Part shown: positions 41,744-48,640 of the stretch, piece by piece
How positions within the stretch are numbered: the first letter of the stretch is position 1
How the letters are laid out: every line of letters starts with the position of its first letter
Source of the DNA: a virus
Virus genome (UHGV): UHGV-0041314
Strand: one strand, 5' to 3'
Length of the DNA: 64,000 nt
Translations under genes and position numbers: made by a program
Notes under the pieces: model-generated
What the model was told of the DNA's origin: nothing
Databases searched by the model: none
Seen by the model: only the letters and a program-made list of their open reading frames with translations

Positions 41744-43159
41744 ATGAGCGAATTATTTAAACATGCGCACCTTCATGCAGGTCGAACTGAAAATGGTGCT
41801 GTAAACCATACTTCATCAATGTCTGCTCTTGTGGACTTTTACAAAGCTGCTGGTTCCAGCCGTAGCAATGTAGAAATCTTACCAGACTTGTTCTACAAAG
41901 CTTTGCGTGAGGATGTTGATGTTGCAGTTCGTATTTTGCTTCACATGCGAGATGTACGAGAAGGTATGGGCGAGCGTAAAGCCTTCAGAACTGTTTTACT
42001 TCAAGCAATCGAAGATAAAGTTTTAGAGCCTACGCAGGTTCTTCGTATTATGGATAAGATTGCAGAACTTGGTCGTTTTGATGACTTCAAAATCTTCGTA
42101 GGTACTCGTTTTGAGACAGATGCCTTCAAACATTTAGAAGCAGCATTACTAGACCCTGCAACAGCAGGTTTAGCAGCCAAGTGGTTACCACGAGTAAAAC
42201 CACGACACAAACAGTTTGTAAAACGTTTCTGCAAGTTTGCTAACTTAAGTGAGAAAGAGTACCGCACACTGTTGTCTGCACTGTCTGATACGGTTGAGCA
42301 AAAAATCTCTGCTAATGAGTTTGGTAAGATTGACTACAGCAAGATTCCTTCACTCGCTGCTGCACGTTACCAAAAACTCTTTAACCGTAAAGATGGGGAA
42401 CGTTACAAAGCTTACATTGAGTCACTCTCAAAGGGTGAGGCTAAGATTAACGCTGGTGCTGTTTACCCATATGATGTGATTAAATCTATTAAGTATGGTA
42501 ATGCAGATGTTGCGAATGAGCAGTGGAAAGCACTGCCAAACTGGATGGCAGAGGGTGAAAACATCTTGTGTATGACTGATGTTTCATGTTCAATGTCTTG
42601 GGTGAATCTTGGCTCAATCACTGCCCTTGATATTGGTGTATCCCTTGCCTTGTATGTAGCAGAACGCAATACGGGTTGCTTTAAGAATGAGTTAATGGTT
42701 TATTCAACAAACCCTCATTTTATCGAACTGAGTGGTGATTTACGAAACCGTCATCGTCAGGTAATGCGTCATGTTGAATATGGCTCAACTAACTTACAAG
42801 CAGCTTTTGACCGCATTCTTGAGGTAGGTAAGCGAAACAACTTGACTCAGAAAGATATGCCAAGTAAGCTTATTATCTTCTCTGATATGGAGTTCAATCA
42901 GGTTGATGGAGCTAACGGTCGTACAAACTTTGAAGCAATTCAGAGTAAGTACAAAAAAGCTGGATACGAAATGCCACAACTAGTATTCTGGTACTTAGCA
43001 AACCGTAATGGTACTTGCGAAGTATCTGTTAAGGATAATGGTGTAGCAATGGTATCAGGGTTCTCTCCAGCCACTTTAAAAGCTCTGCTTGGTGGTGAGA
43101 AGTTTGACCCAATCAGCGTAATGCTCAAAGCAGTAATGATTGACCGTTACATCTGGTAA
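41744..43159 (+). CDS. vWA-domain protein with MIDAS motif; possible Ro60/Rsr (TROVE+vWA)-like RNA-binding protein
   Basis: 471 aa; MIDAS-like TDVSCSMS near residue 280 after ~270-aa N-terminal region; immediately upstream of the tRNA/structured-RNA cluster. Confidence 0.3.
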   Translation: MSELFKHAHLHAGRTENGAVNHTSSMSALVDFYKAAGSSRSNVEILPDLFYKALREDVDVAVRILLHMRDVREGMGERKAFRTVLLQAIEDKVLEPTQVLRIMDKIAELGRFDDFKIFVGTRFETDAFKHLEAALLDPATAGLAAKWLPRVKPRHKQFVKRFCKFANLSEKEYRTLLSALSDTVEQKISANEFGKIDYSKIPSLAAARYQKLFNRKDGERYKAYIESLSKGEAKINAGAVYPYDVIKSIKYGNADVANEQWKALPNWMAEGENILCMTDVSCSMSWVNLGSITALDIGVSLALYVAERNTGCFKNELMVYSTNPHFIELSGDLRNRHRQVMRHVEYGSTNLQAAFDRILEVGKRNNLTQKDMPSKLIIFSDMEFNQVDGANGRTNFEAIQSKYKKAGYEMPQLVFWYLANRNGTCEVSVKDNGVAMVSGFSPATLKALLGGEKFDPISVMLKAVMIDRYIW

Positions 43160-43177: not shown

Positions 43178-43206
43178 TTGACAATGTGTTTGATACCCTT
43201 TAATAT
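43178..43206 (+). promoter_or_regulatory. sigma70-like promoter at the head of the tRNA cluster
   Basis: TTGACA - 17 bp - TAATAT. Confidence 0.55.
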
Positions 43207-43429
43207 GTTCTACATAGAAACGAAATGAGAGCTTTTCTAAGATACTGAAAAATATTTTAAAAAAGTTCTTGACAACCACTAAAAAATAATGTTAAAGTGG
43301 TTACATAGAGTTTGAAAATGACAGTACTGACCGGAACATCGAAAGATGGGTACTGCGCCGGGGTTTTACACCCTCCCAGCCTGAGAGCGGGATAACCAAA
43401 GGAAAGACCGAATTTATTAAGAAGTTTAT

Positions 43430-43506
43430 CTCTGTTTAGCTCAGCTTGGTAGAGCGTTCCGTTTGGGGCGGTAAGGCCGGAGGTTCAAGTCCTCCAACAG
43501 AGACCA
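43430..43506 (+). tRNA. tRNA-Pro (anticodon UGG)
   Basis: cloverleaf by eye: acceptor CTCTGTT/AACAGAG, anticodon loop TTTGGGG, T-arm GGAGG-TTCAAGT-CCTCC, CCA encoded. Confidence 0.65.
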
Positions 43507-43513
43507 AATTAAT

Positions 43514-43591
43514 GTTCCAGTAGACAAAATGGTAAAGTCACCACTCTTTCAAAGTGGATATTTGAGGGTTCAAATCCCTTCTGGAACGCCA
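43514..43591 (+). tRNA. tRNA-Glu (anticodon UUC)
   Basis: acceptor GTTCCAG/CTGGAAC, anticodon arm CCACT-CTTTCAA-AGTGG, CCA encoded. Confidence 0.7.
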
Positions 43592-43596
43592 GTTTT

Positions 43597-43672
43597 GACA
43601 GAAGACCAATTGCAGCAAACTTAATCTTATTCATCTGAAGGTAAATCGGACAAAGAAGAGATTTGGTCTGGT
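43597..43672 (+). ncRNA. structured RNA element, bulged-helix family member 1
   Basis: CAGAAGACCAA...TTGGTCTGG long-range pairing with 2-nt bulge enclosing ~55 nt A/U-rich sequence containing CAGCAA. Confidence 0.3.
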
Positions 43673-43682
43673 CATTAAGAAT

Positions 43683-43759
43683 TGCGGGTATAGAGAAAGG
43701 GCGTCTCACATGTCTCATTAGCATGGTATCGGCAGGTTCGACTCCTGCACCCGCCTCCA
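43683..43759 (+). tRNA. tRNA with CAU anticodon (Met or Ile2), irregular 5' half
   Basis: T-arm GCAGG-TTCGACT-CCTGC and CCA clear; anticodon arm CATGT-CTCATTA-GCATG; 1-72 mismatch; extra nt before D-stem. Confidence 0.45.
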
Positions 43760-43763
43760 AATT

Positions 43764-43832
43764 TACAGAAGACCGTTTACAGCAATATTTATTAAATTTT
43801 TAGCGGAAAAATTGAAAGATACGGTCTGGTAA
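43764..43832 (+). ncRNA. structured RNA element, bulged-helix family member 2
   Basis: CAGAAGACCGT...ACGGTCTGG pairing; conserved TTTACAGCAA after 5' strand. Confidence 0.3.
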
Positions 43833-43842
43833 TACTAAACAT

Positions 43843-43919
43843 GGTTAGGAAGCACATAAGGTATGTGCGGTCGCCTGTTAAGCGAATGGCACAGGGTTCG
43901 AATCCCTGACTAACCGCCA
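43843..43919 (+). tRNA. tRNA-Asn (anticodon GUU)
   Basis: acceptor GGTTAGG/ACTAACC, anticodon loop CTGTTAA, T-arm CAGGG-TTCGAAT-CCCTG, CCA. Confidence 0.7.
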
Positions 43920-43988
43920 AATTTAGGAGAGAAGCGATTGCTCACCGATTTGTAAGGTGCAAGTCCTTAGCCTGAATAGAAATTAAAT

Positions 43989-44076
43989 GTGTCGTTATCC
44001 CGTAGATGGTAGCGGTGGGGACTGTAAATCCCTTGTCATTGAGACTCGGTAGGTTCGACTCCTACACGGCACACCA
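43989..44076 (+). tRNA. tRNA-Tyr (anticodon GUA), long variable arm
   Basis: 88 nt; anticodon arm GGGGA-CTGTAAA-TCCCT; variable arm GTC/GAC; T-arm GTAGG-TTCGACT-CCTAC; CCA. Confidence 0.65.
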
Positions 44077-44082
44077 AATAAA

Positions 44083-44160
44083 GGTTATGTAGTTTAATCT
44101 GGTTAAAATACTCCCCTGTCACGGGAGATGATGAGGGTTCGAATCCCTTCGTAACCGCCA
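44083..44160 (+). tRNA. tRNA-Asp (anticodon GUC)
   Basis: acceptor GGTTATG/CGTAACC, anticodon arm CTCCC-CTGTCAC-GGGAG, CCA. Confidence 0.75.
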
Positions 44161-44245
44161 AATTATAATAAGTATTTCAAAATGATGTTTTGAGAGGGCT
44201 ATTTAGCCCCTCCCTTAAAGAGTTCTTACGAGTATTCTTTAAAGG

Positions 44246-44322
44246 AGCAGAAGACCAAATTCAGCAAGTTACTTAAAATTTCAAGCCAATTTAATTTTGA
44301 AAAATTTAAAACTTGGTCTGGC
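44246..44322 (+). ncRNA. structured RNA element, bulged-helix family member 3
   Basis: CAGAAGACCAA...TTGGTCTGG pairing; AATTCAGCAA after 5' strand. Confidence 0.3.
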
Positions 44323-44332
44323 TCAACAAATT

Positions 44333-44468
44333 TACAGAAGACCGTTTACAGCAAACTTTAAACAATCTATTTCTCCGGTAAAGAAAAGGCGAAGGTTCGA
44401 TTCCTTCACTCGGCAGATGTCGAGTTGGTGTAATGGTAGCACTTAAGATGATAAACAACGGTCTGGTA
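44333..44468 (+). ncRNA. structured RNA with circularly permuted tRNA-like module inside a long bulged helix (Y-RNA/YrlA-like candidate)
   Basis: outer helix CAGAAGACCG (44335-44344) / CGGTCTGG (44459-44466); inside, T-arm GAAGG-TTCGATT-CCTTC then acceptor 3' strand ACTCGGC, 4-nt turn, acceptor 5' strand GTCGAGT and D-arm-like TGGTGTAATGGTAGCAC. Confidence 0.4.
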
Positions 44469-44475
44469 ATTATCT

Positions 44476-44604
44476 TTGTAGATAAGTTATTAAGCTTACC
44501 TGTGAGTATGCGACCACAAAGGGTGAAAGGGTAAATTCTAGATTTAAACCCAACAAGGCACATCGCTACAGACCTTAAGCAAGTCTGGGTAGCTTATCTA
44601 CAAA
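44476..44604 (+). ncRNA. structured RNA candidate enclosed by a 10-bp long-range helix
   Basis: TGTAGATAAG (44477-44486) pairs with CTTATCTACA (44595-44604); internal CAGACC...GTCTGG hairpin. Confidence 0.25.
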
Positions 44605-44615
44605 GATGATTTAAT

Positions 44616-44691
44616 GGAAGTGTAGCAGAATGGTGATGCGGCAGACTTTTAATCTGACAGGCGATGGGTTCGAATCCCTCCACTTCTACCA
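44616..44691 (+). tRNA. tRNA-Lys (anticodon UUU)
   Basis: acceptor GGAAGTG/CACTTCT, anticodon loop CTTTTAA; weak T-stem; CCA. Confidence 0.55.
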
Positions 44692-44695
44692 ATAT

Positions 44696-44772
44696 GGTTC
44701 AGTCGCAGATAAGGTAATGCAGGGGTTTCATAAGCCCTATGAATGTGGGTTCGATTCCCATCTGAACCTCCA
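44696..44772 (+). tRNA. tRNA with CAU anticodon (Met/fMet/Ile2)
   Basis: acceptor GGTTCAG/CTGAACC perfect; anticodon arm GGGGT-TTCATAA-GCCCT (G-C rich); T-arm GTGGG-TTCGATT-CCCAT; CCA. Confidence 0.65.
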
Positions 44773-44773
44773 A

Positions 44774-44849
44774 GCTGGTATAGTTAAGAAGGTTATAACA
44801 CTCCCCTGATAAGGGAACATCGGTGGTTCGATTCCACCTACCAGTACCA
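44774..44849 (+). tRNA. tRNA-Ile (anticodon GAU)
   Basis: anticodon loop CTGATAA; T-arm GGTGG-TTCGATT-CCACC; CCA. Confidence 0.7.
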
Positions 44850-44864
44850 ATTTCAATAAAGTTG

Positions 44865-44893
44865 TTGACATTGAGATGTGACGACTTTATAGT
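44865..44893 (+). promoter_or_regulatory. sigma70-like promoter inside the tRNA cluster
   Basis: TTGACA - 17 bp - TATAGT. Confidence 0.55.
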
Positions 44894-45187
44894 AACTGAA
44901 AATGATTCAGTATATGTATAATTCAAACACCAATACATGAGCGTTAGACGTAACACAATGTGGGGAAATTTGTTGTACATATTCTGAATAGTTTTCGTTG
45001 CGTAGCGTCTATTTTGCAAATTTAAAATAAATGCAAACGACAATGTTTTTCTGGCAGTAGCTTGATAGGCTAAACACCAGTGAGGTCTTCCAATCCCTCA
45101 TCAAAGAATTTGGCGTACTAGCCCACGGTATGATTAATAAGGTGGGCATCTTTAAGGGCTTTCTAAGAGAGTCTTTAAAGATAATTA

Positions 45188-45269
45188 CGGGGCGTATCTC
45201 AGCGGTCTTCTAAACCGCCGTTAACCGAGTAAGTGGAGTATGCGGGTTCGAGTCCTGCCGCCTCGACCA
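45188..45269 (+). tRNA. tRNA-like gene with irregular 5' half; anticodon undetermined (possibly UCU)
   Basis: canonical T-arm GCGGG-TTCGAGT-CCTGC, acceptor 3' strand and CCA; D/anticodon region does not fold as a standard cloverleaf by eye. Confidence 0.35.
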
Positions 45270-45412
45270 ATTTAGTTAGCAGATTGCTTAGACGACCTTA
45301 TCGGGTCTCCGTGTAAGGAGGTGGTCTGTATCTCATGTTTTCCAGAACATGTAAATAATCTGAGAAGGGGCTTTACAGTGTTGCGAAAATACGGTAAGCT
45401 TCGAATTACAGT

Positions 45413-45495
45413 ATGGGACGATGTTAAGACTCTAAGGCATGAGCAACGGCCTCCAAAACCGTTTCAAAGGGGTTCAACTCCTCCGTCCCATGCCA
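45413..45495 (+). tRNA. tRNA-Trp-like (anticodon CCA) with ~7 extra nt between acceptor and D-arm
   Basis: 3' two-thirds canonical (ACGGC-CTCCAAA-ACCGT, T-arm, GTCCCAT, CCA); 5' acceptor strand ATGGGAC displaced upstream. Confidence 0.4.
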
Positions 45496-45508
45496 AAGTC
45501 TTATTAGG

Positions 45509-45596
45509 GGTAGGTAGCGGCTAATGGTAGCCAAACTGTCTTGAAAACAGTTGCCACTGTAGAGATACGGTGAGGGTTCGACTCCTTTACTTACCG
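45509..45596 (+). tRNA. tRNA-Ser (anticodon UGA), long variable arm
   Basis: anticodon arm ACTGT-CTTGAAA-ACAGT; T-arm GAGGG-TTCGACT-CCTTT; 3' end encodes CC only. Confidence 0.6.
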
Positions 45597-45754
45597 CCTA
45601 ATAAGATTTACACCGTCCATGCTTGCTCGCATTTTCGGTTTATCCCTCGTGTATTGGTTGTACACACTGATAAAGCACCTAGTAGGTGTCACGGAGAAGA
45701 GATAATATCAAGCTCTCCAAAGGTTCTAGTCACCGGATTAAACAAGACTATGCA

Positions 45755-45776
45755 AAGACCTAAATAGGTCTTTTTA
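45755..45776 (+). terminator. rho-independent terminator inside tRNA cluster
   Basis: AAGACC-TAAATA-GGTCTT then TTTT. Confidence 0.5.
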
Positions 45777-45854
45777 GAGGGCTTCTAAGGTTATTACAGC
45801 TTGTTGTGGAACCTTGTTGCTTAGGTTCTTAGAAGTTCTCTAAAAAGATTTAAT

Positions 45855-45932
45855 GGGAGATTGACGGTAATTGGTAAACCTACCATCCTTAGAAGTTGGT
45901 GTTTGAGGGTTCGAATCCCTTGTCTCCTACCA
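45855..45932 (+). tRNA. tRNA-Leu-like (anticodon UAG), short variable loop
   Basis: acceptor GGGAGAT/GTCTCCT, anticodon loop CTTAGAA, T-arm GAGGG-TTCGAAT-CCCTT, CCA; D region irregular. Confidence 0.45.
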
Positions 45933-45939
45933 AATTAAT

Positions 45940-46015
45940 GCAGGTGTAGCAAAATGGTTATGCGGCTGACTCTTAATCAGTAAGACGATGGGTTCAATTC
46001 CCTCCACCTGTACCA
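45940..46015 (+). tRNA. tRNA-Lys (anticodon CUU)
   Basis: acceptor GCAGGTG/CACCTGT, anticodon arm GCTGA-CTCTTAA-TCAGT, CCA. Confidence 0.55.
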
Positions 46016-46021
46016 AACATT

Positions 46022-46097
46022 GGGGTCATAGTTTATATGGTTAAAATTCGAGTTTTGCAAACTTGGGAACTGAGTTCAACTCTCAGTGACTCCACCA
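46022..46097 (+). tRNA. tRNA-Ala (anticodon UGC)
   Basis: acceptor GGGGTCA/TGACTCC, anticodon loop TTTGCAA, T-arm CTGAG-TTCAACT-CTCAG, CCA. Confidence 0.7.
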
Positions 46098-46103
46098 ATT
46101 AGT

Positions 46104-46178
46104 GCATCCATAGTTTAAACGGGAAAATTACAGTCTTCCAAACTGAGGTTGAGGGTTCGATTCCCTCTGGATGCTCCA
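46104..46178 (+). tRNA. tRNA-Gly (anticodon UCC)
   Basis: acceptor GCATCCA/TGGATGC perfect, anticodon loop CTTCCAA, T-arm GAGGG-TTCGATT-CCCTC, CCA. Confidence 0.75.
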
Positions 46179-46185
46179 AATTAAT

Positions 46186-46262
46186 GCTGCTTTCGTATAA
46201 TTGGCTATTACACATCCCTTGTAAGGATGGAAATGCAGGTTCGAGTCCTGTGAGCAGCACCA
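46186..46262 (+). tRNA. tRNA-Thr (anticodon UGU)
   Basis: anticodon arm CATCC-CTTGTAA-GGATG, T-arm GCAGG-TTCGAGT-CCTGT, CCA. Confidence 0.75.
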
Positions 46263-46263
46263 A

Positions 46264-46356
46264 TTCAGAGGTCAAGTGAAAGACCGCTTTGAGTCAACTG
46301 AAGACCGTAACAAATCCCACGGAGTTGAGTTAGCGGCACAACTTCAGACCTCTTTC
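46264..46356 (+). ncRNA. structured non-tRNA RNA between tRNA-Thr and tRNA-Val
   Basis: nested helices AGAGGTC/GACCTCT, CTGAAG/CTTCAG, TCAACT/AGTTGA; contains CTGAAGACCGTAACAA resembling the CAGAAGACC motif. Confidence 0.3.
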
Positions 46357-46358
46357 AT

Positions 46359-46433
46359 GCTCGCTTAGTTTATATGGTAAAACATCACCCTTACAAGATG
46401 AAGAAAAAGGTTCAAGTCCTTTAGTGAGTACCA
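46359..46433 (+). tRNA. tRNA-Val (anticodon UAC)
   Basis: acceptor GCTCGCT/AGTGAGT, anticodon loop CTTACAA, T-arm AAAGG-TTCAAGT-CCTTT, CCA. Confidence 0.65.
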
Positions 46434-46434
46434 T

Positions 46435-46512
46435 GTTCCAGTATCCCAATTGGCAGAGGATGCAAGCTCAAACCTTGTATTAGTGACGGTTCGAATCCGT
46501 CTTGGAACACCA
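46435..46512 (+). tRNA. tRNA-Leu-like (anticodon CAA), short variable loop
   Basis: anticodon arm GCAAG-CTCAAAC-CTTGT, T-arm GACGG-TTCGAAT-CCGTC, CCA; weak D-stem. Confidence 0.5.
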
Positions 46513-46626
46513 ATTTTAGGAGAACACTATGAGTAATAAATCAATTGCAAAAAAGTTTATAGCGTCATTCAAAAACAGGCGTAAAAACAACTCTTGTGAA
46601 AAACTGTATGGTGTTCTTGTAGGTAA

Positions 46627-46702
46627 GCAGGATTAGTTCAAATGGATAGAGCAACAGTCTACGAAGCTGTTAATAGGGGTTCGAATCCCTTATCCTGCAC
46701 CA
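46627..46702 (+). tRNA. tRNA-Arg (anticodon ACG)
   Basis: acceptor GCAGGAT/ATCCTGC perfect, D-arm GTTC/GAGC, anticodon arm ACAGT-CTACGAA-GCTGT, CCA. Confidence 0.75.
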
Positions 46703-46721
46703 ATTTAAAGAGGCTATTTAG

Positions 46722-47279
46722 ATGAGATATTTGAAGTATGCTTCATGGATTGTCTTAGCTTTGTTAGAGCCATTTGCAGCAATCTTAGCAGTTATCTTAG
46801 CACCTTTCGTAGTCCCATTCTACAGTGAGAAGAAAGGACACTTACCTTTCGGCTTCAGATGGATGGAGACATATGACAACCCAATTGATGGTGATAAAGG
46901 GCATGTCGAACGATGGGCTAAGATTAGAAAGATTGGCAAGCTTGGTGTCTATATGCAGAGAGTCGGTTGGCTCTGGAGAAACAAAGCTTATAACTTCTCT
47001 TACCATGTATTAGGAAGAGATGTAAAAGATGTTACTAAGTGGAAAGGTAATATCAACGTAAGTTCTAACCCTGAAGATAATCAGACAGGTTATCTCCTAA
47101 TGTGGAACAGTAATGCTTGGGGATTATTCGCTTTTATCCCATCAATTAAAGTCTTTGGTAAACAATTCTACTGGAGAATTTATGTTGGATGGAAGCTAAA
47201 AAGTGTTGTCCCAGAAGAAAGAGCATTCTCAAGGGAAAGAGTTATGTTGGCATTCTTTATTCATCCACTAAGAAAGTAA
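46722..47279 (+). CDS. hypothetical membrane protein embedded in tRNA cluster
   Basis: AAAGAGG RBS; N-terminal hydrophobic segment; between tRNA-Arg and tRNA-Gln. Confidence 0.45.
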   Translation: MRYLKYASWIVLALLEPFAAILAVILAPFVVPFYSEKKGHLPFGFRWMETYDNPIDGDKGHVERWAKIRKIGKLGVYMQRVGWLWRNKAYNFSYHVLGRDVKDVTKWKGNINVSSNPEDNQTGYLLMWNSNAWGLFAFIPSIKVFGKQFYWRIYVGWKLKSVVPEERAFSRERVMLAFFIHPLRK

Positions 47280-47287
47280 AGATTTAA

Positions 47288-47363
47288 AGGGGATTAGTTT
47301 ACAAGGTTAAAACCTCGGTCTTTGAAATCGAAGAAGTTGGTTCAATTCCAACATCCCCCGCCA
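47288..47363 (+). tRNA. tRNA-Gln (anticodon UUG)
   Basis: anticodon arm TCGGT-CTTTGAA-ATCGA, T-arm GTTGG-TTCAATT-CCAAC, CCA; A1-C72 mismatch. Confidence 0.65.
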
Positions 47364-47365
47364 AT

Positions 47366-47444
47366 GCTCCATTACTCCAATTGGTAGAGAGGCCAGACTT
47401 AAAATCTGTGTTATGTATCGGTTCGAATCCGATATGGAGTACCA
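47366..47444 (+). tRNA. tRNA-Leu-like (anticodon UAA), short variable loop
   Basis: anticodon loop CTTAAAA, T-arm ATCGG-TTCGAAT-CCGAT, CCA. Confidence 0.5.
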
Positions 47445-47449
47445 AATTT

Positions 47450-47525
47450 AGCGGTATAGCATAACTGGCAATGCAGCAGTCTCTGAAGCTGTCTTATTAA
47501 GGTTCAAATCCTTATGCCGCTGCCA
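47450..47525 (+). tRNA. tRNA-Gln (anticodon CUG)
   Basis: standard numbering fits: D-arm GCAT/ATGC, anticodon arm GCAGT-CTCTGAA-GCTGT, T-arm TAAGG-TTCAAAT-CCTTA, CCA. Confidence 0.7.
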
Positions 47526-47556
47526 CTTCTAAGGGTTCTTACGAGAGTCCTTAAAT

Positions 47557-47632
47557 GTGGCCTTATCATAAATGGTAATGACCCATGCTGTGAACATGGT
47601 CTATACGGGTTCAAATCCCGTAGGTCACCCCA
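47557..47632 (+). tRNA. tRNA-His (anticodon GUG)
   Basis: D-arm TCAT/ATGA, anticodon arm CCATG-CTGTGAA-CATGG, T-arm ACGGG-TTCAAAT-CCCGT, CCA. Confidence 0.75.
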
Positions 47633-47638
47633 ATTTAT

Positions 47639-47714
47639 AGTCCAAGTAGCTTATATGGTTAAAGCGCGTGTCTGAAAAACATGAGAAGAGGGTTCAAATC
47701 CCACTGGACTACCA
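47639..47714 (+). tRNA. tRNA-Phe (anticodon GAA)
   Basis: anticodon arm CGTGT-CTGAAAA-ACATG, D-arm GCTT/AAGC, CCA; acceptor/T-stem register ambiguous by 1 nt. Confidence 0.6.
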
Positions 47715-47730
47715 ATTCCAAAGGTGCTTA

Positions 47731-48465
47731 ATGAAAGAGATGACAGAACAAGGTAAGGAGATTTTTAATCTCTTAAAAACCGGTAGAGGGTTTTCTAATC
47801 CCCTTATTACTGGTGCAGCAGTTCTCGGTGGAACCGTAGCTGCCTCTACATCACTTGTAAGCTCTATTAGCTCTGTAACAGACCCTACAATAAAAGATAA
47901 ACTTGTTGCTGCTGGACTTACAACAGTTCTGCTTAACAGCTTTACAACGAGCCTGACAAGCACTACATCAACTACTAAGACACTGACAGATTACGGTCAA
48001 AAGTCCATTGATGAGTTTTCCTCACGTATGCAGGTAGCAAAAGGCTATTCTAATGTTATGGGTGCAGCAGGTGAACAAGTTGGCTGTACACCATTTAGTG
48101 GTATTATGGGTGTTGCTACAGAGTATGGTCAAAAAGCTATGGATACGATTAACAGTGCACTAGACGGTGTTAATGATGTATTAAGTGACTTACAGGATGC
48201 TATTGATAAAGGTCTTGATACTATTTCTGATTTAGCTAACCAAGCTGTTAGTAAGATTAATGAAGGTATCTCGAAGATTACAGCTTATGCAGATGAAGTT
48301 GTGCAGATGATTGAAGAAGAAGCTGCCCTTATTGCAGAGTACCTTAAAACGAATATCAATGGGTTCTTAGCAGGTATCTTACCAGACTGGTTCGACGATG
48401 CTTGTAAAACTGGTGTAATTGACACTATTGCAACACCAGAAATGAAGAACGCATTACAGAAATAA
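47731..48465 (+). CDS. hypothetical Ser/Thr-rich protein embedded in tRNA cluster
   Basis: track ORF 47668 starts at GTG inside tRNA-Phe; ATG 47731 with AAGGTG RBS lies after the tRNA. Confidence 0.4.
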   Translation: MKEMTEQGKEIFNLLKTGRGFSNPLITGAAVLGGTVAASTSLVSSISSVTDPTIKDKLVAAGLTTVLLNSFTTSLTSTTSTTKTLTDYGQKSIDEFSSRMQVAKGYSNVMGAAGEQVGCTPFSGIMGVATEYGQKAMDTINSALDGVNDVLSDLQDAIDKGLDTISDLANQAVSKINEGISKITAYADEVVQMIEEEAALIAEYLKTNINGFLAGILPDWFDDACKTGVIDTIATPEMKNALQK

Positions 48466-48467
48466 AT

Positions 48468-48560
48468 GGAAGATTAACCCTAAAAGGTAAGGGAGCAGTT
48501 TGCTAAACTGCCAGTAGCTGAGAAATCGGTGTACCAGTTCAAGTCTGGTATCTTCCTCCA
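48468..48560 (+). tRNA. tRNA-Ser (anticodon GCU), long variable arm
   Basis: 93 nt; acceptor GGAAGAT/ATCTTCC perfect, anticodon arm GCAGT-TTGCTAA-ACTGC, T-arm ACCAG-TTCAAGT-CTGGT, CCA. Confidence 0.7.
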
Positions 48561-48564
48561 ATTT

Positions 48565-48640
48565 GAATCCGTGACAGAAATGGCTATGTGCCTGTCTGCA
48601 AAACAGGTTTATAAGGGTTCGAGTCCCTTCGGATTCTCCA
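48565..48640 (+). tRNA. tRNA-Cys (anticodon GCA)
   Basis: standard numbering fits: acceptor GAATCCG/CGGATTC, anticodon arm CCTGT-CTGCAAA-ACAGG, T-arm AAGGG-TTCGAGT-CCCTT, CCA. Confidence 0.8.

Follow-up and report, generated by a model that had tools for sequence, protein, structure and literature searches.

Candidate Y-RNA-like RNAs in the tRNA array of a Felix O1-like phage belong to an RNA family found beside Ro60-like protein genes

The stretch of DNA analysed here (the window, 64,000 nt) comes from a Felix O1-like phage and carries on its + strand four elements that are rightly regarded as RNA-level helices and not as chance repeats. They are members of a widespread, unannotated phage RNA family that adjoins the gene of a Ro60-like protein, as judged from their structure and its covariation, their strand, their matches to family models and the tight linkage of gene and RNA across phages. 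We infer that the four elements are probably small non-coding RNA genes, whose expressed and matured products would be bound by the Ro60-like protein encoded upstream and function as its Y-RNA-like partners.

Layout, folding and covariation of the four elements

All four copies have a common layout, in which a 4-bp outer helix, an internal loop of AGA opposite G and a 7-bp inner helix (AGACCNN/NNGGUCU) are followed, 3 nt past the 5' strand of the inner helix, by an invariant single-stranded CAGCAA. Copy 1 (43596..43674, +) fills the spacer between tRNA-Glu and tRNA-Met, with the outer helix UGAC/GUCA (43596-43599 with 43671-43674), AGA at 43600-43602 opposite G43670, the inner helix AGACCAA/UUGGUCU (43603-43609 with 43663-43669) and then CAGCAA (43613-43618) and a variable body. 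Copy 2 (43763..43832, +) fills the spacer between tRNA-Met and tRNA-Asn and combines the outer helix UUAC/GUAA (UUGC/GCAA in relatives), the AGA/G loop and the inner helix AGACCGU/ACGGUCU with the motif UUA-CAGCAA at 43777-43785; both copies occupy their tRNA-tRNA spacers exactly. Copy 3 (44245..44324, +) has the outer helix GAGC/GCUC (GGGC/GCUC or GAGC/GUUC in relatives), the AGA/G loop, the inner helix AGACCAA/UUGGUCU and CAGCAA at 44262-44267, and copy 4 (44332..44469, +), with the same outer helix, loop and inner helix and with CAGCAA at 44349-44354, encloses a permuted tRNA-like domain. The distance from GACC to CAGCAA is exactly 5 nt in 4/4 copies. At the motif, copies 2 and 4 have GU-UUACAGCAA, copy 1 has AAUUGCAGCAA and copy 3 has AAAUUCAGCAA, and the 3' strands of the copies run into GGUCAUUA, GGUAAUAC and similar sequences. 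Counting from the conserved G up to and including CUG, lengths are 58 nt for copy 2, 67-68 nt for copies 1 and 3 and 126 nt for copy 4.

The original prediction, made from the sequence of the window, had described a four-fold recurrence of a motif with downstream pairing partners, and this is borne out by the motif positions, by their counts against expectation and by four equal folds. On the + strand, AGAAGACC starts at 43600, 43767, 44249 and 44336 (nine occurrences in the whole window against 2.2 expected, a number reached in 0/100 shuffles) and GGTCTGG at 43665, 43823, 44315 and 44460 (11 in the window against 4.1 expected). RNA folding, which had been suggested as a check, predicted the same minimum-free-energy architecture in 4/4 copies, CAGCAA being unpaired in each. 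Several details had to be corrected: in place of the supposed conserved 2-nt bulge there is an asymmetric internal loop, in which AGA of the 5' strand faces G of the 3' strand, between the 4-bp NNNC/GNNN and 7-bp helices; the spacer ahead of CAGCAA is R-WWW-N rather than W3-N2; and the two bases ahead of GGTCTGG are TT or AC rather than (T/C)(T/G). The structured element at 46264-46356, put forward as a relative, has only GAAGACCG in common with the copies; it has no CAGCAA, no GGUCUGG partner and no match to either of the family models described below, and is therefore not a family member.

The four copies are kept in place across 15 genomes (Felixounavirus, Suspvirus and Mooglevirus), with CAGCAA invariant and always 5 nt past GACC in 60 copies from these genomes. 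Aligning the loci with those of homologous phages, proposed at the outset as a check for compensatory changes, did reveal covariation: 93% of the cells of the stem alignment were paired, against 22-46% when the partners were slid, changes on both sides were found in 6/12 stem pairs tested, and the covariation score was matched by 0/500 shuffles. Both helices, outer and inner, covary across paralogues and orthologues. In the inner helix, (A)GACCNN/NNGGUC(U), the first G is invariant and the distal pairs vary between A-U, G-C and U-A. Single-base changes (AGGCC, GACU, GAGC/GUUC) lead to G-U pairs on the + strand only.

These changes bear on the idea that the copies are repeats acting at the DNA level, as protein sites, recombination sites or targets or scars of homing endonucleases, their RNA structure being incidental. 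HNH endonuclease genes are inserted in the tRNA region of several relatives, and inverted repeats could form in DNA too, but on the opposite strand the G-U pairs would turn into A-C mismatches, the helix sequence varies from copy to copy with pairing retained, CAGCAA has no inverted partner, and the family matches counted below are biased to the gene strand in each of three data sets; we consider a DNA-level role very improbable. The G-U pairs, together with the same strand bias, also led us to reject a reading of the elements from the minus strand.

A tRNA-like module had been predicted in copy 4 only, in agreement with the Rfam tRNA alignment and the consensus fold obtained here. The domain (44370..44443, +) consists of a V hairpin (44370-44386), a T arm (44391-44407, GAAGG-UUCGAUU-CCUUC), a closed acceptor-like hairpin (44408-44425) and a D arm (44427-44443). 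Using RNAalifold on 12 orthologues, we found the T and D stems to be invariant and three pairs of the acceptor-like stem to be changed on both sides. The module lacks the cloverleaf with free acceptor ends of a tRNA and has a permuted order; it scores 24.7 bits with the Rfam tRNA model, below the cut-off of 29, and aligns in the V, T and 3' acceptor part only. ARAGORN made no tRNA call on this domain in the window, and in Moogle and HP1 it reported a permuted 'tmRNA*' whose start lies shortly upstream of the orthologue of copy 4. A permuted true tRNA gene was rejected for copy 4, with its acceptor closed by only 4 nt and without CCA; the genuine tRNAs examined in the same part of the array have CCA encoded.

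The copies share the strand of the protein gene and sit 437-1310 nt 3' of its stop (43159). Copy 1 is separated from the protein gene by two tRNA genes and by two sigma-70-like promoter matches (43178-43206 and 43269-43298, +, each 10/12 in a consensus scan), and copies 3 and 4 are more than 1 kb from the protein gene, behind six tRNAs. A transcript with the tRNAs and the four elements could start at the promoter matches in 43178..43298, which are consensus matches only, and the scan found no + strand terminator-like site from these promoters to the next promoter-like site at 44865; the tRNAs and the four elements are presumably co-transcribed. The promoter and terminator scan also led us to reject the copies themselves as promoters, and as intrinsic terminators (a G+C-rich hairpin with a U tract), there being no + strand terminator-like site at any copy.

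The Ro60-like protein gene and the phage-wide RNA family

The gene upstream of the elements (41744..43159, +) encodes a protein of 471 aa with the Pfam domains DUF2828 and DUF7788 and is assigned to PHROG 850 ('RNA-binding protein'). Its structure model matches Ro60 structures over the full length in Foldseek, the best match being the Ro60 of phage phiLo, with ~15% sequence identity. Across 40 homologues of the protein, five residues (D279, S281, S283, T349 and D381) do not vary and can be read as those of a vWA MIDAS motif; going by the model match, the protein has the helical-repeat domain and the C-terminal vWA domain with MIDAS that define Ro60. A Pfam search of the protein returned only DUF2828 and DUF7788 and no TROVE domain, and a phmmer search of PDB sequences found no Ro60 chain. 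Judged by its model, it is thus Ro60-like by fold only and not a TROVE member detectable by sequence, and because TROVE is undetectable in this way the Ro60 analogy rests on fold and gene neighbourhood.

Ro60-like proteins of this kind are present in 710 phage records. In Bas63, a phage of the same genus Felixounavirus, the ortholog gp130 was reported to have a Ro60-like structure and to counter the Ppl defence system, and the authors suggested that some of the downstream 'tRNA genes' might be Y RNAs (10.1101/2024.10.10.617714). The preprint identified no RNA and mentions neither a family-wide motif nor a link to amoebae; it pointed at annotated tRNA genes, whereas the candidates described here lie between such genes, not among them.

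A module of AA-G, a stem of 6-7 bp, WWW-CAGCAA, a variable body and CUG recurs beside DUF2828 genes of very diverse phages. Family members were counted with two covariance models, R1, built from 40 amoeba RNAs alone, and R2, built from phage hits, the E-values of both being rough. In 862 kb of phage loci, R2 yielded 83 matches with E<=1, of which 82 were on the strand of the DUF2828 gene and most were 30-420 nt from it. In seven annotated phages (of Staphylococcus, Listeria, Campylobacter, Enterococcus, Vibrio, Bacillus and Mycobacterium), 15/16 matches were on the gene strand and most abutted the gene, the Bacillus phage having one marginal match (E 0.49) ~1.6 kb from its DUF2828 gene. An independent genome collection gave 30/31 matches on the gene strand, mostly 100-450 nt upstream; many Clostridia-type DUF2828 loci of this collection had no family match. 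In the 64-kb window the four copies were the sole R2 matches, and they score weakly with the family models, at 17.5-29.2 bits by R2: 19.9 bits for copy 1 (E 0.058), 29.2 for copy 2 (E 1e-4), 23.9 for copy 3 (E 0.0036) and 17.5 for a partial match to copy 4. Across 51 hits, in alignments that were fitted to the model, the family-wide stem was 100% paired, all 5 modelled pairs were changed on both sides and the first pair was G-C in 48/51.

Searched for in 75 distant DUF2828 loci, the exact sequence GAAGACC...GGTCT was encountered only as chance matches within coding sequence. In its literal Felix O1 form the motif is therefore specific to its clade, and the part shared by the family is the AG-stem with CAGCAA and CUG. 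A generic helix descriptor and a loose stem + CAGCA(A/G) regular expression had a heavy background in coding regions and were used as leads only. At curated cut-offs, Rfam returned only tRNAs from the whole window, and we found neither a record nor an Rfam family that describes the four elements; a full-text literature search with the motif and the Pfam/InterPro ids gave nothing relevant. In the fetched records, family members either lack annotation or coincide with short 'hypothetical protein' calls of doubtful value. In Listeria phage WIL-1, an RtcB-type ligase is encoded 1.3 kb downstream of the DUF2828 gene, a setting of RNA repair that favours the reading as a Ro-like particle.

The original prediction had left room for a processing signal, or for spacers of tRNA precursors, whereby the helices would guide nucleases on a polycistronic transcript and the excised pieces would be functionless. 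All four copies do lie within the tRNA array, seemingly in one transcription unit, copies 1 and 2 span their tRNA-tRNA gaps exactly, and many DUF2828 genes adjoin tRNA arrays. However, the module is present at DUF2828 loci that have no tRNAs (for example L009, L011, L015 and L016). It is absent from the tRNA arrays of three phages (T5-like, rV5 and T4-like) whose fetched stretches contain no DUF2828 gene, the 46.6 kb searched there having a single weak match, on the minus strand, and only 4 of the ~25 spacers of the array in the window bear it. The same architecture is moreover that of abundant, stable RNAs in amoebae (PMC7919456). A spacer or processing role is accordingly disfavoured, and we regard it as unlikely.

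We also think it improbable that the elements are cis-acting or autoregulatory UTR structures of the DUF2828 transcript, bound by the protein to control expression or mRNA stability. At most distant loci they lie 30-450 nt from the gene on the same strand, past its stop or before its start, as such structures might. Yet in the window the two promoter-like sites and two tRNAs intervene, with copies 3 and 4 farther off behind the six tRNAs; elsewhere 2-5 elements follow one another in tandem, their bodies being unrelated and in some cases containing a complete tRNA-like domain, and the placement of the elements relative to the gene varies (upstream, downstream or within tRNA arrays). The reading as RNA partners of the protein accords with the link to the upstream 'vWA' protein made in the original prediction, which gains from the full-length model match to Ro60 and from an RNA module that tracks homologues of the gene through very different phages.

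Resemblance to Y RNAs and to dictyostelid Class I RNAs

In bacterial Y RNAs of the YrlA type, at least one RNA per genome has a tRNA-like domain, its parts following the order V, T, closed acceptor stem, D (PMC4201824). The domain of copy 4 has this same V-T-AS-D order as YrlA (RF02553), supported by the consensus fold and the compensatory acceptor changes, with T and D near-invariant and an acceptor stem of variable sequence. YrlA genes, of which a genome often has several, share their strand with a Ro60-fold gene no more than a few kb away, and the same is seen in the window, where the elements are <4 kb from the gene on the same strand, the encoded protein being Ro60-like by fold only. In YrlA the two ends pair into a terminal stem and a conserved motif lies close to the 5' end, as is the case in the window elements; the motif itself differs, being WWW-CAGCAA with an A-G/C-U stem base in the window and GNCGAAN0-1G in YrlA, and so does the partner, a DUF2828 protein by sequence in the window and a TROVE Ro60/Rsr for YrlA. 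Without a tRNA-like part, 3/4 copies are more YrlB-like.

None of the published Ro60-binding motifs (vertebrate GGUCCGA; bacterial and phiLo GNCGAAN0-1G or CGAA) is present in the window helices; the 5' strand NNNC-AGAAGACC resembles C-(C)GAAG and matches no published Y RNA motif. The protein-binding helix of the original prediction therefore holds in part: a conserved helix with a variable interior points to a protein-recognition module, but not one with a published Ro60 motif. No copy was matched at E<=10 by the Rfam models Y_RNA (RF00019) and YrlA (cut-off 69 bits), and CAGCAA elements with tRNA-like domains at other loci gave sub-threshold YrlA matches (39.1 bits, E 5e-5; 29.6 and 26.7 bits). 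For the Thermus phage phiLo, binding of Yrl1 and Yrl2 by Ro60 and a complex with PNPase were demonstrated experimentally (PMC12135203; PDB 9kop, 9l5y), after its Ro60 had been found as a homologue in a database search and its RNAs picked by the CGAA motif (PMC12135203). There too a phage Ro60-fold gene has small stem-bulge-stem RNAs encoded beside it, two in number; the phiLo RNAs carry CGAA, which is missing from the window RNAs at the equivalent position.

Class I RNAs (RF01414) are reported to be unique to Dictyostelia, where they are abundant and stable and bind the RRM protein Rnp1A (PMC7919456); they have previously been tied to the multicellularity of social amoebae. As in the phage family, their terminal stem joins both ends, has 6-7 bp and keeps its pairing around an invariant first G, and the window copies share both the invariant 5'-most G and the compensatory pairing. 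An 11-nt motif, CCUUACAGCAA, directly follows the 5' stem strand of Class I RNAs, where phage members have NN-UUA-CAGCAA; its near-invariant, unpaired positions U3, C6, C9, A10 and A11 are found in the window copies, the one exception being an A at position 3 of copy 3. There is agreement at the flanks too, with AAG at the start and CUGU at the end: Class I RNAs start with AAG and phage members with AAAG, or AGAAG in the window, and Class I RNAs end in CUG(U), most other phage members having AAAG...CUG(U/A/G) and the window copies AGA-AG...CU-G-G, with G instead of U as fourth 3' base. Compared with Class I RNAs, Felix O1-type copies carry an extra outer helix, and the conserved AGA and G therefore become an internal loop in them. 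Both groups have a variable, A/U-rich body and clustered genes. Class I RNAs are 42-65 nt long (median ~60 nt), and the window copies would measure 58, 67-68 and 126 nt from G to CUG, copy 4 being twice as long; some amoeba members (asu_can_20 and ppa_can_99) have a T arm. To our knowledge, no function has been found for Class I RNAs in the two decades since 2004.

With the amoeba-only model R1, the 862 kb of phage loci yielded 29 matches with E<=1, all on the strand of the DUF2828 gene and mostly adjacent to it, including 15 with at least 25 bits (best 36.6 bits, E 8e-6); tRNA arrays from phages that lack a nearby DUF2828 gene yielded none. In the window, R1 gave 16.1 bits for copy 2 (the best), 13.1 for copy 1 (second-best) and 12.8 for copy 3, all below the authors' own search bar of at least 25 bits plus the stem; orthologues and other phage members reached 24-37 bits, among them the copy 2 orthologues of SUSP2 (29.0 bits) and Moogle (24.4 bits). 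The Rfam model Dicty_Class_I_RNA scored 20.1 bits on copy 2 and 14.7 bits on copy 4 (alignment 44340-44465); its cut-off of 41.5 bits was reached by no phage element, the window copies scoring 15-20 bits. The DUSE promoter, ~60 nt upstream of the amoeba genes, is absent, the phage context being a tRNA array with sigma-70-like promoter matches. Class I RNAs are hosted by amoebae, to which their published family definition is confined, and the elements described here by phages and bacteria. DUF2828 proteins have been reported in plants, and one Arabidopsis candidate in the outgroup table of the amoeba paper (PMC7919456) has the full architecture. The original prediction contained neither the likeness to Class I RNAs nor the recognition that CAGCAA, invariant and single-stranded, is the family core.

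We tentatively raise the possibility, with somewhat less than even confidence, that the phage RNAs and the Class I RNAs form one family, in which DUF2828-type Ro60-like proteins would recognise the stem base together with CAGCAA. Class I RNAs would then be the 'Y RNAs' of a second Ro-like RNP system shared by phages and eukaryotes, and amoebae may have exchanged it with phages that infect the bacteria they feed on.

A candidate Ro-like particle in phages

The family signature proposed here is an end-to-end terminal stem whose base reads A-A/G-A followed by AG... on the 5' side and ...CU followed by G on the 3' side, with WWW-CAGCAA and a freely varying body. On this definition, with the conserved G and CUG as end points, the RNAs of the window would be ~58-68 nt (copies 1-3) and ~126 nt (copy 4) long. 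They probably arise as part of the transcript of the tRNA array, from which tRNA-processing nucleases would free them. Most likely they are the RNA subunits of a ribonucleoprotein with the upstream Ro60-like ring protein, as Y RNAs are for Ro60. The stem base and CAGCAA would form the protein-binding module, and the variable body may recruit or imitate other partners, the body of copy 4 being a putative YrlA-type tRNA mimic. The particle might serve to survey or repair RNA, or to overcome defences of the host.

Now that the candidate RNAs for this widespread phage Ro60-like protein have coordinates, a phage Ro-like particle becomes testable. The RNA family is defined across phages of Proteobacteria, Firmicutes, Actinobacteria and Campylobacter and is covered by no Rfam family, and the link of the amoeba Class I RNAs to this phage family names a candidate partner to seek in amoebae, a DUF2828/vWA protein. 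In parallel with TROVE Ro60 and Y RNA, though with a different recognition motif, this would be a second case of a Ro-fold protein that is combined with RNAs made of a stem and a motif, some of them with a tRNA mimic. If phage and amoeba RNAs are indeed one family, the Class I RNAs, with no function on record since 2004, would become the Y RNAs of a Ro-like RNP.

The repeated structure and its conservation in Felix O1-like phages

Four structured elements (copies 1-4) lie on the + strand at 43596-43674, 43763-43832, 44245-44324 and 44332-44469, in the first part of an array of 25 tRNA genes (+ strand, 43430-48640, ARAGORN) and just 3' of a 471-aa ORF (41744-43159) encoding a Ro60-fold protein (DUF2828+DUF7788; hereafter the DUF2828 gene). 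They are best read as small-RNA genes of a family genetically tied to this protein. The surrounding 3.7 kb matches Felix O1-like phages, e.g. KEP1, SP22 and Felix O1, at 93-98% identity. On the + strand, AGAAGACC occurs at 43600, 43767, 44249 and 44336 and GGTCTGG at 43665, 43823, 44315 and 44460, both being over-represented in the window compared with dinucleotide shuffles. The minimum-free-energy (MFE) folds of all four stretches share a single architecture: an outer helix of 4 bp (UGAC/GUCA, UUAC/GUAA, GAGC/GCUC and UUAC/GUAA in copies 1-4), an internal loop in which AGA (5' side) faces a single G (3' side), an inner helix of 7 bp (AGACCNN/NNGGUCU), then three bases, an unpaired CAGCAA and a variable body. 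The original prediction of four repeats with pairing partners holds in general, and folding, one of the checks it proposed, gave the same architecture four times, but what it described as a 2-nt bulge is an internal loop of 3/1, and it slightly misread some of the degenerate motif positions.

All four copies are kept in place in 15 genomes of Felixounavirus, Suspvirus and Mooglevirus. In a stem-half alignment of 37 distinct copies, standard pairs fill 93% of cells, versus 22-46% with the 3' partners slid by 1-3 columns, and the compensatory changes that the prediction had proposed to look for are present: 6 of the 12 tested pairs changed on both sides (e.g. UUAC/GUAA to UUGC/GCAA in copy 2 orthologues), with a covariation score reached by none of 500 shuffles. 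Single changes (AGGCC in two different copies, GACU, GGGC/GCUC and GAGC/GUUC) give G-U pairs, which they do only if the RNA is the + strand. Invariant bases are C, AGA, AG-C, CAGCAA and GGUCU-G-G. The GenBank records fetched carry no RNA annotation at the copies, listing there nothing at all or short "hypothetical protein" calls. Such calls overlap RNA elements in phage HP1 (L090 1611-1739, HP1_22), in locus L094 (4471-4560 and 4690-4818, CoNPh9_CDS0136 and 0135) and in Listeria phage WIL-1 (L092 2645-2917, PI27_gp032-034), and are probably spurious.

Another structured element (46264-46356, +, between tRNA-Thr and tRNA-Val; MFE -30 kcal/mol, z -3.5) had been proposed as related. It contains AAGACCGC and GAAGACCG but lacks CAGCAA, and neither family model described below matches it; at 96-98% conservation in relatives it is too similar for a covariation test.

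Similar RNAs beside DUF2828 genes and in amoebae

We fetched 80 viral contigs with homologues of the DUF2828 protein, most at 39-47% identity. In the distant homologue contigs the Felix O1 motif was not found in its literal form. T-loop-like sequences outside called tRNAs cluster beside the DUF2828 gene, where folds comprise a terminal stem, UUU/UUA/AUA, CAGCAA, a T arm, a closed acceptor hairpin, a D arm and the 3' stem strand; many shorter elements (49-65 nt) have the same ends without the tRNA-like part. The family consensus, (A/U)AA-AGRNNNN-WWW-CAGCAA-variable-NNNNYCU-G, is the inner helix, AGA and G of the Felix O1 copies, the outer helix being an addition also seen in some other loci (e.g. 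L057 and L010).

Class I RNAs of Dictyostelia are about 60 nt long, start with AAG and end with CUGU, and have a terminal stem of 6 bp, in which changes are compensatory and the first G is invariant, an 11-nt motif (CCUUACAGCAA) adjoining the 5' stem strand and a variable remainder; they were described as a Dictyostelia-only class without a known function (Kjellin et al., PMC7919456). The Rfam Dicty_Class_I_RNA consensus is GaUcuC-CUUACAGCAA...GagAuC-UG. The sequence and structure features among these are all common to the phage elements, which differ in host, promoter and score; counted from the G to CUG, copy 2 has 58 nt, copies 1 and 3 have 67-68 nt and copy 4 has 126 nt. A covariance model (R1) was built from 40 amoeba sequences alone (supplement of PMC7919456) and searched against the window and 79 loci (862 kb, both strands). 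It gave 29 matches with E<=1, all on the DUF2828 gene strand and mostly 30-420 nt from the gene, including 16 with E<0.01 and 15 at 25 bits or more (best 36.6 bits, E 8e-6). In the 64-kb window with filters off, copies 2, 1 and 3 were three of the four best matches at 16.1, 13.1 and 12.8 bits, which are weak alone; copy 2 orthologues scored 29.0 bits in SUSP2 and 24.4 bits in Moogle.

A second model (R2), built from 25 phage matches of R1, gave 83 matches with E<=1, of which 82 were on the DUF2828 gene strand, with a match below E 0.01 in 44 of the 80 sources; in the window it matched only copies 2, 3, 1 and 4 (29.2, 23.9, 19.9 and 17.5 bits). Seven annotated phages of Staphylococcus, Listeria, Campylobacter, Enterococcus, Vibrio, Bacillus and Mycobacterium yielded 16 R2 matches (15 on the gene strand), most of them in tandem sets that abut the DUF2828 gene; the single match in the Bacillus phage was marginal (E 0.49) and lay about 1.6 kb away from its DUF2828 gene. 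An independent genome collection (80 loci) gave 31 matches with E<=0.1, of which 30 share the strand of the gene; they lie mostly 100-450 nt upstream. The RNA is present also in DUF2828 loci without any tRNA, and 46.6 kb of tRNA arrays in DUF2828-free stretches (T5-like, rV5 and T4-like), used as a negative control, gave one weak minus-strand match only. Across 51 matches, in an alignment fitted to the model, the terminal stem is 100% paired, 5 of 5 modelled pairs changed on both sides and the covariation score is 0.67 versus 0.24 in shuffles. Lachnospiraceae and Clostridia DUF2828 loci (L129-L180) have almost no RNA-model match, this branch having either a diverged RNA partner or none.

Many distant loci (L019, L021, L024, L027, L028, L029, L031, L034, L035, L052, L053, L068 and L073) carry, within a few bases 3' of a short CAGCAA RNA, a long form that measures about 230-240 nt, or about 170-180 nt in the case of L029, L052 and L073; an example is L028 6463-6698. 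Its ends, GGAUCG-GUA-CAGCAA...CGAUCC, are those of the short form, with a large body between, and short-form models miss it. The amoeba Class I RNAs asu_can_20 and ppa_can_99 have a T-arm-like GGUUCGAUCC/GGUUCGAAUCC hairpin, and the stem-AUUACAGCAA-...-CUG layout is complete in ath_can_1 (CM score 40), an outgroup candidate from Arabidopsis (PMC7919456 supplement); DUF2828 proteins are reported in plants.

The tRNA-like domain of copy 4 and curated RNA families

From 12 orthologues of copy 4, RNAalifold predicts four + strand elements enclosed by the outer and inner helices: a small hairpin at 44370-44386, a T arm (GAAGG-UUCGAUU-CCUUC) at 44391-44407, a hairpin of 7 bp with a closing loop of 4-10 nt at 44408-44425, and a D arm at 44427-44443. 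The T and D stems are invariant; in the intervening hairpin, three pairs changed on both sides. In bacterial YrlA Y RNAs, the tRNA-like domain is ordered V-T-closed acceptor stem-D, with T and D invariant and the acceptor variable (Chen et al., PMC4201824); copy 4 has this same order, invariance and variability. The Rfam YrlA model gave sub-threshold but non-trivial scores on other CAGCAA elements with tRNA-like domains (39.1 bits, E 5e-5, and 29.6 bits in L010; 26.7 bits in L079). We rejected copy 4 as a tRNA gene: ARAGORN made no call, and Rfam tRNA scored 24.7 bits over part only. ARAGORN permuted tmRNA (tmRNA*) calls start near copies 3-4 in Moogle (L082 8382) and HP1 (L090 1631); judging from these start positions only, they may be triggered by the permuted T/acceptor/D arrangement of copy 4.

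Copies 1-4 do not reach the cut-offs that Rfam sets for Y_RNA, YrlA or Dicty_Class_I_RNA (which aligned weakly to copy 4 at 14.7 bits in a narrow scan and scored 20.1 bits on copy 2) and lack the published Ro60-binding motifs, so we did not file them in these curated families; their likeness to Y RNAs is one of layout and neighbourhood.

Directly 3' of copy 4 lies a very stable element (44468-44614, +, z-score -5.35) in which a long-range helix of about 24 bp (44468-44491 with 44588-44611) surrounds several hairpins, one of them (CAGAC-CUUAAGCAA-GUCUG-G) echoing the family motif in miniature. Its coverage is lost in most Suspvirus and Mooglevirus records; Sf14 matches at 81%. Further on is a tmRNA-like stretch (44997-45269, +) with sub-threshold Rfam tmRNA matches (44997-45186 and 45188-45269), a permuted-tmRNA match (44791-45065) and no ARAGORN tmRNA call. 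A reading frame at 45033 (GCAAACGAC...) encodes ANDNVFLAVA followed by two stops, close to the E. coli tag ANDENYALAA; five Felix O1-like contigs and Moogle have the identical frame.

Proposed expression and role

The presence of promoter-like sites at 43178-43206 and 43269-43298, with no + strand terminator up to 44865, suggests that the copies are co-transcribed with the tRNAs. From the second site to tRNA-Pro runs a leader of about 125 nt (43300-43426, +), whose only Rfam match, to sraL, is weak (27 bits). Copies 1 and 2 each take up the exact spacer between two tRNAs and could be released through tRNA end-processing. In WIL-1 an annotated RtcB-type "tRNA splicing ligase" (L092 5808-7019) is encoded 1.3 kb 3' of the DUF2828 gene, an arrangement comparable to rsr-yrlBA-rtcBA in Salmonella. 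This ligase and the Ppl-counter phenotype of Bas63 gp130 point to a role in RNA repair or anti-defence, which, like co-transcription and processing, we infer. By analogy with Ro60 and Y RNA, the conserved stem base with CAGCAA is likely a protein-binding site and the variable body, which in copy 4 mimics a tRNA, likely an adaptor or decoy. Binding was shown for the Ro60-RNA pair of phage phiLo (PMC12135203). A Ro-fold protein with a partner RNA is a known kind of system; the resemblance of the phage RNAs to Class I RNAs adds an unexpected bridge to an orphan eukaryotic RNA class.
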